A stretch of 63,619 bases of DNA, the filler included, from Basidiobolus ranarum (lineage: Eukaryota): NCBI GenBank assembly GCA_040143965.1. It is 10 parts of 10 records of this genome, joined end to end, with 100 filler letters (N's around TTAATTAATTAA, not from the genome) between each part and the next. Parts side by side here need not be neighbours in the genome. Positions count along the whole stretch, not along the records: positions 57,359 to 63,619 come from JASJQH010001362.1; 9 more parts are not named here. One strand, written 5' to 3'. Of this stretch, positions 58,410 through 60,708 are shown piece by piece (the first letter of the stretch is position 1; each line of letters opens with the position of its first letter). Under the pieces are notes generated by a model. That model was not told where the DNA came from. It was given only the letters and a program-made list of their open reading frames with translations, and did no database searches. Made by a program: the position numbers and the translations under genes.

Positions 58410-60708
58410 ATGGAATACGATCCACAAGAATACGATGTCCTATGCGCAGGGTTTGGGCCAGCCGGTGTGGCTATTGCCATCGCTTTAGCTGAAGATGGCC
58501 GTTTAAAAGGATTCGAGGAGCACAATAAGAATTCCATTAAGAATGAGACTTTGAATGTGTGCTTCATCGAGAAGCAAGTCAATCCAGTCTGGCACGGGGG
58601 TATGCTAATTGACGATACCAAGATGCAGATTAGTTTCCTCAAGGATCTTGCAACTTTAAATAATCCCAAAAGTCACTTCACTTTCATCAATTATCTCAAG
58701 GAGCATAACAGACTGGTTGACTTTACCAACCTCGGAACTACTCTTCCCTATCGTTCCGAATTTAACGATTATCTCAACTGGATTACTTCTCACTTTAGTA
58801 GCCTAGCTCATTTAGGCGAGGAGGTTATTTCTGTGGAGCCCATTTTCAAACAGGGTACCCAAGAAATAGAGCGTCTCAGAGTTACTTCCAAGCGACTTGG
58901 AGATAACACATCTATCGTGCGTATAACGAAGCGTTTTATCGTAGCTATTGGTGGCCAAGCACGGATTCCTGCTTGGGCTAAAGGCAACCAAGGCCAGTAT
59001 AACAGTCATATTTTACACTCTTCTCAATACTTCTACAATGTCTCGAAAATGTTACCCGAAAGAGAGGCACCCTATTCTGTTGCTGTAGTGGGCGGTGGAC
59101 AGAGTGGTGCGGAGATATTCCACGATGTCATTCAACGCTACCCTAATTCTCGTGTATCCCTCATTTTAAGAGACAGCGCTTTACGTCCCTCAGATGATAG
59201 TCCTTTTGTCAATGAAATTTTCAATCCAACCTCCACCGATAAGTTCTTCAACCTATCTGAGGAAAGACGCAAGGCTTGTCTTAAGCATAATAGTGCTACG
59301 AATTACTCAGTAGTTCGCCTTGAGTTGATTGAGAGCATCTACTCGACTCTTTATCAACAAAAGTTACCTGGACATTCCCAGCAGCATTCCATTCTCTCTT
59401 CACGCCAGGTAGTCTCATACAACTCTGATAATGGTAAAATTCTATTACAACTCCGCCAGTGCGACGAAGCTGGACAACCTATTGGAAATCCAAATACCGT
59501 CAGCGATCATGTTTTCGATGCTGTATTCCTAGCTACTGGCTACGAACGTAATGCCCATACCCGTATTCTGCAACCCATGGCACCTTACCTTCTTAAGACT
59601 GACGATTCCATCTGTGATCCTGCCAAGGAGCTTCAACTTTCCATTGAACGAGACTATCGTGTTCGTACCGTACCTTCTTGTCATCCAAGCATCTATCTTC
59701 AAGGTTGTTGCCAAGACACTCATGGTATCAGTGACTCACTTCTATCGGTGCTCTCCGTTCGTGCTGCTGAAGTTACACACTCTATCATTCAAAGTCACAA
59801 CAACGCGAAGCTAGCCATTGGTATGTTTATTTTATTCTTGTCAATGTAAAAGATCGGATGTTTACTTCTTTTCTACTATAGAAACTCCCAAGAATAGCAC
59901 CGATTCAACACTAGTATTCACTTCCATTGATTTACGTGATGGAAATAACTTGGATTACCGTTGGGAATGGGTGAATGATTTCAACACTGGAGGCAGACCC
60001 ATCAAGCAAAAACTTGGTTGGTTACGTTACATTGATCTTCCTATTCAAGGAAAGAGAGAAATTACAAATGGCGTTAACCACCCCATTCGTCCACCACCAC
60101 CTCCTCCTGGTACAGTGGTATACCGCTGTTACATAGCCAGTATTAAAAAGACCATCTCTTTCCGCGTAGCAGATTTACAGAAAGATTTAAATACATTCCA
60201 CACTTGGATGAATAATCCTCGTGTATCGGAATTCTGGGCTGAAGATGGAACTCTTGAGCAGCACGCCACCTATTTGTCCAATCTTCTTGCTGACAAACAC
60301 AGCATTCCTCTCATTGGTCTCTTTGATGATGAACCATTTGGTTACTTTGAAGTATATTGGGCCAAGGAGGATAGATTGGGTGAATTCTATTTAGCAGATG
60401 ACTATGATCGTGGTACCCATTGTCTAATTGGCGAGCAGAAGTTTAGAGGGCCTCAATATGTCCACGCGTGGATGACTTCTATAAATCACTACTCTTTCTT
60501 AAGTGAACCACGTACCAGTCGTCTGGTTGGAGAGCCCAGAGCGGACAACGAAAAATTGATCAAGTATACCTTAAAGGAAGGTTTTGAGAGACATGGAGAT
60601 ATTCAAATGAAGCATAAATTAGCAGCGCTAATAATGTTACCTCGTAAAGTCTTCAGTAATAGAAGTGCAGCAGGACAACTGTTGAGAGGATGTAGCGCAA
60701 AACTTTAG
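58410..60708 (+). CDS. Fused L-ornithine N5-monooxygenase / N5-hydroxyornithine acyltransferase (745 aa)
   Basis: Exon 58410-59820 has GFGPAG, WHGGML, MQISFLKDL, GGGQSGAE, DDSPFVNEIF, ATGY and HGISDSLLS. Intron 59821-59881 (GTATGT..CTATAG) splices in frame to exon 59882-60708, which has FHTWMNNPRV..W, GYFEVYWAKED, YDRG and VGEPR. Confidence 0.9.

Follow-up and report, generated by a model that had tools for sequence, protein, structure and literature searches.

A predicted two-exon gene of Basidiobolus ranarum joins a SidA-type ornithine N5-monooxygenase to a GNAT acyltransferase

Introduction

Do two overlapping open reading frames (ORFs) in the genome of Basidiobolus ranarum form two genes or one, and what would their product do? 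The ORFs lie at 58410-59849 and 59818-60708 of a 63,619-nucleotide (nt) stretch of DNA, here called the window, which consists of 10 parts joined by 100-N filler and in which adjoining parts need not be genomic neighbours; positions 57,359-63,619 of the window are record JASJQH010001362.1. We present evidence that the locus is a two-exon fungal gene predicted to join, in one protein, the enzymes for the two opening steps of hydroxamate siderophore synthesis: a SidA-type ornithine N5-monooxygenase and a GNAT acyltransferase that would act on its product. By sequence comparison the fusion architecture is rare, is conserved in early-diverging fungi and has been invented at least twice.

The published record, cited throughout from the accessible portions of each paper, would not lead one to expect such a gene. 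As an initial annotation of the locus had stated, the two enzymes are encoded by separate genes in Aspergillus and Schizosaccharomyces pombe (bioRxiv 10.1101/2024.08.20.608788; PMC11424930). No SidA or SidF homologues are reported from B. dendrobatidis or R. oryzae in the portion of PMC3709128 available, nor any SidF or SidL homologues from Mucoromycota or Chytridiomycota among 82 species in that of bioRxiv 10.1101/2024.08.20.608788. The appearance of sidA has been tied to 'higher fungi' (PMC4133162), the accessible text of PMC2644324 records no ferrichrome synthetase in the chytrid and the zygomycetes that could be examined at that time, and Mucoromycota make rhizoferrin (PMC10500206). For Basidiobolus, siderophore nonribosomal peptide synthetases (NRPSs) of the SID/SIDE clade have been predicted, B. 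meristosporus is positive in the chrome azurol S (CAS) assay, and horizontal gene transfer into secondary metabolism has been reported; the main text of that paper, as far as accessible, uses none of the terms monooxygenase, acyltransferase, hydroxamate and ornithine and does not give the gene-model numbers (PMC7466969).

The two reading frames form one gene

ORF 1 (58410-59849, + strand) starts with ATG and encodes 479 residues, and ORF 2 (59818-60708, + strand; 296 residues) lies in the +1 frame relative to it and is opened only by a TTG. The two are joined by removal of a predicted 61-nt intron (59821-59881, + strand; GTATGT...CTATAG) situated at the seam between the monooxygenase and a linker. 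Exon 1 (58410-59820, + strand) then encodes residues 1-470 from its start codon on and ends at G59820, which is the first base of codon 471, and exon 2 begins at A59882; the spliced coding sequence of 2238 nt specifies 745 residues followed by a TAG stop. This translation exactly matches the NCBI and UniRef entry 'hypothetical protein K7432_013560 [Basidiobolus ranarum]' (P0001), and the same intron has therefore been picked by an independent gene caller. Because 29 GT..AG pairs around the junction keep the frame, frame alone is unremarkable; among these pairs, however, the consensus donor GTATGT occurs only at 59821-59881, and splicing from the more upstream donors would excise residues conserved without change among orthologues.

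The downstream ORF is poorly suited to independent expression. In the exon-2 frame the first in-frame ATG is at 60208, by which point the Pfam GNAT match has already run for 12 residues and similarity to SidF for 44, so the acyltransferase could not be produced as a complete separate protein; and because the two ORFs overlap, a second promoter would have nowhere to lie. The two ORFs, the 61-nt intron and the 745-residue product put forward in the initial annotation are thus those found here, and its view that they specify a single bifunctional protein is upheld by the want of a usable ATG in exon 2 and by the recurrence of the architecture in 14 of 501 proteins, described below.

The annotation had further suggested that intron retention might act as a splicing switch, and its reading of a stop at 59849 is correct as a matter of sequence: in the retained form, nine extra codons lead to an in-frame TAA (59847-59849) and a 479-residue product. 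That stop falls just beyond the monooxygenase fold, so the truncated product would be a complete SidA-like enzyme, and the intron is located exactly at the domain seam. Regulated retention would accordingly yield either the fusion or a stand-alone monooxygenase by condition. We consider such a switch improbable, since the donor GTATGT is a strong consensus, a stand-alone hydroxylase would still require an acyltransferase, and the premature stop, about 860 nt ahead of the normal one, would make the retained transcript a likely target of nonsense-mediated decay.

The two halves resemble consecutive siderophore enzymes

Both domain assignments of the initial annotation are confirmed by Pfam. The monooxygenase domain, contained in exon 1 (58410-59820, + strand; hidden Markov model envelope residues 2-465), matches PF13434 (Lys_Orn_oxgnase) over residues 1-470 with 317.7 bits against a cut-off of 21.3 (E 1.2e-94, profile positions 2-338 of 339). 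Among solved structures its best relative is A. fumigatus SidA, aligned over its whole length (E 2e-111, 376 bits), followed by PvdA of the P. aeruginosa type (E 8e-98, 331 bits); lysine enzymes of the MbtG, KtzI and NbtG type and the diamine hydroxylases are far behind, at 235 bits or less. The sequences GFGPAG (residues 14-19) and GGGQSG (residues 228-233) correspond to the GxGxxG and GxGxxG/A signatures that we take to define the dinucleotide motifs for flavin adenine dinucleotide (FAD) and for NADPH, respectively, in the SidA/PvdA/IucD family, and G14, G16, G228, G230, Q231 and S232 are invariant in an alignment of eight fusions. When the protein is aligned to SidA (PDB 4b63), SidA residues K107, R279, N293, N323 and S469 correspond to K78, R254, N268, N298 and S446, each invariant in all eight aligned fusions. 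We take SidA K107, N293, N323 and S469 to be the contacts to ornithine and R279 to be the contact to the NADPH phosphate.

Exon 2 opens with the linker (residues about 466-540; 59882-60090, + strand), in which a patch WxW...G-LR-Y/F is conserved in five Basidiobolus-type alignment rows, and continues with the GNAT domain (residues 541-732; 60091-60666, + strand). The match to PF13523 (Acetyltransf_8) runs from residue 472 on and spans the whole profile (1-145 of 145) with 187.2 bits against a cut-off of 27 (E 1.5e-55). The best solved relative of this part is the C-terminal domain of SidF (PDB 7qf6, residues 241-430; E 8e-53), followed by BH2621, MbtK, Rv1347c and DfoC. SidF is matched from its residue 241 onwards, and ahead of this point the Basidiobolus protein has only its 75-residue linker and the monooxygenase. 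In an alignment to Rv1347c (PDB 1yk3), His130 and Asp168 of that enzyme correspond to His650 (codon at 60418-60420, + strand) and to a conserved acid, Glu688, both of which are invariant in 13 fusions. The same Rv1347c pair has been equated with His248 and Glu286 of S. pombe Sib3, of which His248 is essential (PMC11424930). An AlphaFold2 model built from the 13-fusion alignment folds both domains, with most blocks at 80-93, and the model of the protein in the ESM Atlas has a predicted template-modelling score (pTM) of 0.64. A complex prediction of the monooxygenase half against the GNAT half scored 0.00; run without controls, it speaks neither for nor against contact between the domains.

Distribution of the fusion

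A census was taken of 501 proteins, in which the presence of both domains was judged by BLAST and, for nine proteins, by Pfam scan. Both domains were found in 15 of the 501, in the order monooxygenase-GNAT in 14 and reversed in one (P0387); the Pfam scan detected both families in seven of the nine, P0362 and P0004 showing PF13434 only. Linkers in the 14 same-order fusions span 8-145 residues. Among the best 120 relatives of exon 1, both Pfam families are present in eight: the proteins of B. ranarum and B. meristosporus and six chytrid models from five species, namely Spizellomyces punctatus, Powellomyces hirtus (two models), Thoreauomyces humboldtii, Phlyctochytrium arcticum and Rhizophlyctis rosea. 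These chytrids represent three orders, Spizellomycetales (to which Spizellomyces and Powellomyces presumably belong), Chytridiales and Rhizophlyctidales. A HMMER search with the whole protein against 1.84 billion cluster representatives returned 2637 matches, and no ESM Atlas cluster of at least 50 members carried both Pfam families. The top feature match in that atlas (0.90), an ArsN2-type GNAT fused to Pyr_redox_3, was set aside as a look-alike in architecture only.

The reversed fusion, P0387, is an uninterrupted 600-residue ORF of Lentzea flava (L001, 7995-9797, + strand) that lies within an NRPS cluster comprising A-T, C-T, penicillin-amidase, MFS and KAS-III genes and a reductase-terminated NRPS. 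Full-length matches to it were found in five of 38 actinomycete loci, the other 33 matching one half only. It resembles the Basidiobolus protein in carrying PF13523 and PF13434 in one polypeptide and differs in the order of the domains, in having no linker and in the placement of its monooxygenase in a distant clade (split supported at 98, starred); being bacterial, it therefore arose independently. On these comparisons the architecture is a rare one, conserved in early-diverging fungi and invented at least twice.

Two further fusions, P0361 and P0366, are compact, with the same domain order and linkers of 28 and 8 residues, and branch outside the named early-diverging-fungal clade of the monooxygenase tree. 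The residues K, N, Q and Y are abundant in P0361, for which a prokaryote genome collection gave 69 pattern matches, none of them encoding a relative.

Ancestry of the two halves

The monooxygenase tree (71 rows, 445 columns; a quick IQ-TREE analysis with SH-aLRT, the Shimodaira-Hasegawa-like approximate likelihood-ratio test, as its only support) places all 13 named chytrid and Basidiobolus rows in one 18-row clade (SH-aLRT 92). Inside branches of 91 and 94 this clade joins Ascomycota SidA (99, starred) and some other representatives, and the PvdA rows named from Pseudomonas and Azotobacter (100, starred) fall outside them. The monooxygenase of the window is sister to that of B. meristosporus (100, starred), and this pair is sister to unfused-looking Basidiobolus paralogues (97, starred). 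In an approximately unbiased (AU) test, forcing four Basidiobolus rows together with six named proteobacteria cost 93.9 log-likelihood units (p-AU 0.0013), the group having been picked after the tree was viewed. By this tree and test, the ancestry of the monooxygenase half is fungal rather than proteobacterial.

The GNAT tree (60 rows, 200 columns; also quick) leaves its deep nodes unresolved and contains no labelled row of a verified SidF or SidL. Basidiobolus rows lie outside both bacterial clades (supports 84 and 99), outside an Ascomycota clade of proteins of about 520 residues (100, starred) and outside a pair from Ophidiomyces and Stachybotrys; the second of these fungal groups would be SidF-like and the first SidL-like. 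A branch supported at 97 (starred) divides the chytrid fusions from Basidiobolus, and a single origin of the fusion is compatible with every starred branch of this tree.

The initial annotation had named per-domain phylogenies as a test of horizontal transfer, and these trees bear on whether the whole gene, or its acyltransferase half, is of bacterial origin. Beyond Basidiobolus, the best near-length GNAT matches come from alpha- and beta-proteobacteria; these proteins have about 350 residues (47-53% identity) and rank above the Ascomycota proteins of about 520 residues (33-47%, mostly 36-42%), and transfer into Basidiobolus secondary metabolism is on record, as noted above. Opposed to this are the grouping of the monooxygenase with fungal sequences and the AU result with its post hoc group, the position of the Basidiobolus GNAT rows outside both bacterial clades, the spliceosomal intron and the composition of the window, 38% G+C throughout. 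We regard bacterial origin as quite unlikely overall; for the monooxygenase half it is rejected, and for the acyltransferase half the tree is not decisive.

Putative iron-regulator sites in the promoter

The promoter region (57315-58409), which is bounded upstream by a GH15-family gene (55068-57314), contains four exact matches to the sequence ATCWGATAA: ATCTGATAA at 57500-57508 (- strand), ATCAGATAA at 57900-57908 (+ strand), ATCTGATAA at 58234-58242 (+ strand) and ATCAGATAA at 58269-58277 (+ strand), the last 133 nt upstream of the ATG. The 63.6-kb window holds six such sites where shuffled sequences lead one to expect 2.9, the other two being at 29946-29954 (- strand) and 49215-49223 (- strand), and random placement of six sites would put four within 1.1 kb with P = 0.0004. 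In A. fumigatus the motif is enriched 5.4-fold upstream of SreA-regulated genes, and it fits the in vivo sites of SreA orthologues at U. maydis sid1 and at S. pombe str1 and fio1-fip1 (PMC2610380). The cluster is the strongest hint in the sequence of a role for the gene in iron acquisition, and transcription is somewhat more apt than not to be repressed by iron through an SreA/Fep1-type GATA factor acting at the four putative sites.

The same cluster argues against the idea that the product serves something other than an iron siderophore, or that the substrate is lysine or a diamine rather than ornithine. Members of the family also hydroxylate lysine, putrescine and histamine, and no siderophore NRPS is found nearby in the window; the much closer similarity to SidA and PvdA than to the lysine and diamine enzymes, and the invariance of the residues corresponding to the SidA ornithine contacts, nevertheless make this alternative hard to sustain, and we give it little weight.

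A paralogous fusion and a peroxisomal-type C terminus

A second, paralogous fusion appears to be carried by Basidiobolus, its gene models being truncated or split. In B. ranarum the paralogue P0004 (582 residues) continues past its monooxygenase into a linker of similar kind (WxW...GxLRY...HPxRxP) and reaches the first strand of the GNAT domain, about 25 residues into which the model ends. In B. meristosporus the annotation of the paralogue consists of two models, a 'partial' monooxygenase (P0003) and a GNAT protein of 217 residues (P0239). For both, the longest contig listed is the same one, of 44,552 bp, and they are probably a split model of one fused gene. As the window gene and its B. meristosporus counterpart are sister to the paralogues, the duplication occurred within the Basidiobolus lineage. 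The notion that the fusion of the window is itself an artefact, two adjacent genes merged in one model and their proteins made separately, could point to these two B. meristosporus models on one contig, but is very hard to reconcile with an exon 2 that has no ATG ahead of the GNAT core, with ORFs that overlap by 32 nt and leave no space for a promoter, with the passage of P0004 from monooxygenase to GNAT in one model, and with the Lentzea ORF, whose uninterrupted reading shows that such fusions exist.

The window protein ends ...LRGCSAKL, the final Ala-Lys-Leu codons and TAG stop occupying 60697-60708 (+ strand), and B. meristosporus has the same final eight residues. This end fits the consensus (S/A/C)(K/H/R)(L/M) of the type 1 peroxisomal targeting signal (PTS1), and AKL is the end of peroxisomal SidF in A. 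fumigatus and in most Ascomycota tabulated (PMC3709128). Among the fusions it is confined to P0001 and P0002, being present in none of the 13 others; nor is it found in P0239, which ends ...SAESN and lacks a PTS1. That AKL directs the enzyme to peroxisomes is a tentative proposal, to which we assign a little less than an even chance. Basidiobolus may thus possess a targeted and an untargeted copy, a predicted arrangement that recalls SidF and SidL.

PTS1-like ends occur in seven of the 501 compared proteins. Five of the carriers are stand-alone SidA-family proteins, P0074 (AKL), P0092 (ARL), P0368 (ARL), P0369 (SKL) and P0474 (AKL), a set that includes proteins of Penicillium digitatum and Letrouitia; SidA is usually regarded as cytosolic.

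Discussion

The gene probably encodes a bifunctional enzyme that makes N5-acyl-N5-hydroxyornithine for hydroxamate siderophores. In this scheme the N-terminal, FAD- and NADPH-dependent SidA-type domain would hydroxylate L-ornithine at N5, and the C-terminal GNAT domain, of the MbtK/IucB/SidF/SidL family, would then acylate the N5-hydroxy nitrogen from an acyl-CoA; the resulting N5-acyl-N5-hydroxyornithine would be the hydroxamate block that a siderophore NRPS assembles. Acetyl-CoA is about as good a candidate for the acyl donor as all others together, and anhydromevalonyl-CoA or another CoA ester is a less favoured choice. It is conceivable, if doubtful, that holding the two domains together concentrates hydroxyornithine locally for the acylation, that is, that the intermediate is channelled.

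Several observations weigh against this proposal or parts of it. None of the 19 long ORFs scanned as neighbours across the window encodes an NRPS, an IucA/IucC-type NRPS-independent siderophore (NIS) synthetase or a siderophore transporter; with no siderophore gene in the window's 58 kb upstream or 3 kb downstream, the gene is not visibly clustered. Matches in an NCBIfam scan of the protein were sub-threshold only, none being near an equivalog cut-off. The GNAT tree places the domain in neither the putative SidF-like nor the putative SidL-like clade, so the acyl donor is not fixed by it. In the AlphaFold2 model the linker (467-538) is below 50-65 and the pTM is 0.57, and there is therefore no fixed inter-domain geometry to back channelling. 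The ATCWGATAA consensus is that of Dikarya, its use in Basidiobolus being assumed, and the frequency of PTS1-like ends among the compared proteins makes AKL alone weak evidence. Rhizoferrin has been reported for Entomophthorales, and CAS activity is not specific to hydroxamates.

Comparison with characterized systems places the predicted bifunctional enzyme more closely. Residues 7-460 align end to end with A. fumigatus SidA (PDB 4b63, 6x0h), with which the protein shares both dinucleotide motifs, the five contact residues and its grouping in the tree; SidA, however, is a stand-alone enzyme of about 500 residues, whereas the Basidiobolus protein adds the 75-residue linker and the GNAT domain. 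SidA is described as acting before the pathway divides between cytosolic SidL and peroxisomal SidF, while in Basidiobolus the fusion itself ends with the PTS1-like AKL. With A. fumigatus SidF (PDB 7qf6) it has in common the GNAT domain, the catalytic His and acid and the C-terminal AKL, but the N-terminal domain that SidF and SidL possess (about 240-330 residues) is absent, its position being taken by the monooxygenase and linker. That domain of SidF (about 240 residues) is reported to be needed in vivo (bioRxiv 10.1101/2024.08.20.608788).

The Erwinia DfoC-type fusion (PDB 5o7o) likewise joins Acetyltransf_8 to a neighbouring enzyme of the pathway, the partner there being an IucA/IucC-type synthetase that performs the next step, whereas in Basidiobolus the partner is the hydroxylase of the previous one. 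Proteins that interact are sometimes found fused. S. pombe Sib2 and Sib3, which have the same two activities, bind each other in co-immunoprecipitation (PMC11424930), an association that fits this rule by analogy. The two are non-covalently associated products of separate genes in S. pombe, and in Basidiobolus they would be covalent parts of the product of one.

A broader and distinctly speculative scenario, which we think unlikely to hold in full, would make the fusion the ancestral fungal route to hydroxamate precursors: an iron-repressed module of a single polypeptide that passes N5-hydroxyornithine to its own GNAT domain. Basidiobolus would have duplicated it into a peroxisomal copy, the AKL-ending gene of the window, and an untargeted one, in parallel with SidF and SidL; in Dikarya it would have been split, the acyltransferase gaining an N-terminal domain that mediates contact of the Sib2-Sib3 type, and the intron at the seam would be a relic of, or a handle for, such a change.

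The novelty that the initial annotation attached to the locus must be reduced. The 745-residue model was already in NCBI and UniRef, the fusion also occurs in B. meristosporus and in chytrids of three orders, and the search for the domain architecture that the annotation proposed recovered the same order in 14 of 501 proteins, so that the fusion is not unique, and a reversed form in Lentzea. The siderophore potential of Basidiobolus had been published, and B. ranarum is placed in Basidiobolomycota rather than in Mucorales, the group with which the annotation drew its contrast. What is new is the architecture, with a hydroxylase in place of the N-terminal domain of SidF and SidL, together with the iron-motif cluster, the PTS1, the pair of paralogues and the parallel to Sib2-Sib3; we found no description of a SidA-GNAT fusion in the literature, supplementary files excepted.

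The finding conflicts with the published absence of SidA and of SidF/SidL from chytrids and zygomycetes, as stated in the accessible portions of PMC3709128, bioRxiv 10.1101/2024.08.20.608788 and PMC4133162, in that Basidiobolomycota and three orders of Chytridiomycota possess the two enzymes in fused form. It also connects the siderophore chemistry of Basidiobolus, for which NRPS genes have so far been the only ground of prediction, with a gene for the precursor, one that appears to be under iron control. As a natural covalent version of Sib2-Sib3, the protein offers an object for testing channelling between hydroxylase and acyltransferase and lets the role of the N-terminal domain of SidF and SidL be asked; it would also provide a single-gene route to N5-acyl-N5-hydroxyornithine for pathway engineering.

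Other features of the window and of related proteins

Downstream of the fusion gene the window contains an ORF for a DPBB/CBM19 protein (61497-62066). Genes farther off include those for glutathione peroxidase, an arrestin, AIM24, an Fe-ADH and a RAI16-like protein. An exon encoding ABC-transporter transmembrane segments (41625-42242, - strand) lies 16 kb upstream of the fusion gene in the window, with two unrelated genes between them; ABC exporters are present in some fungal siderophore clusters, and no link is claimed here. The ATCWGATAA site at 49215-49223 precedes a P-type ATPase exon (51189-52736) by about 2 kb.

Two relatives of the acyltransferase half have unusual architectures of their own. 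P0121 of Derxia lacustris (712 residues) has tandem Acetyltransf_8 domains (148-340 and 513-705), which the GNAT tree assigns to separate bacterial sub-clades. In P0132 of Stachybotrys chartarum (1390 residues), Acetyltransf_8 is joined to SPX/anion-transporter domains (PF03105, PF00939, PF03600), and this protein may be a merged gene model or an odd fusion.

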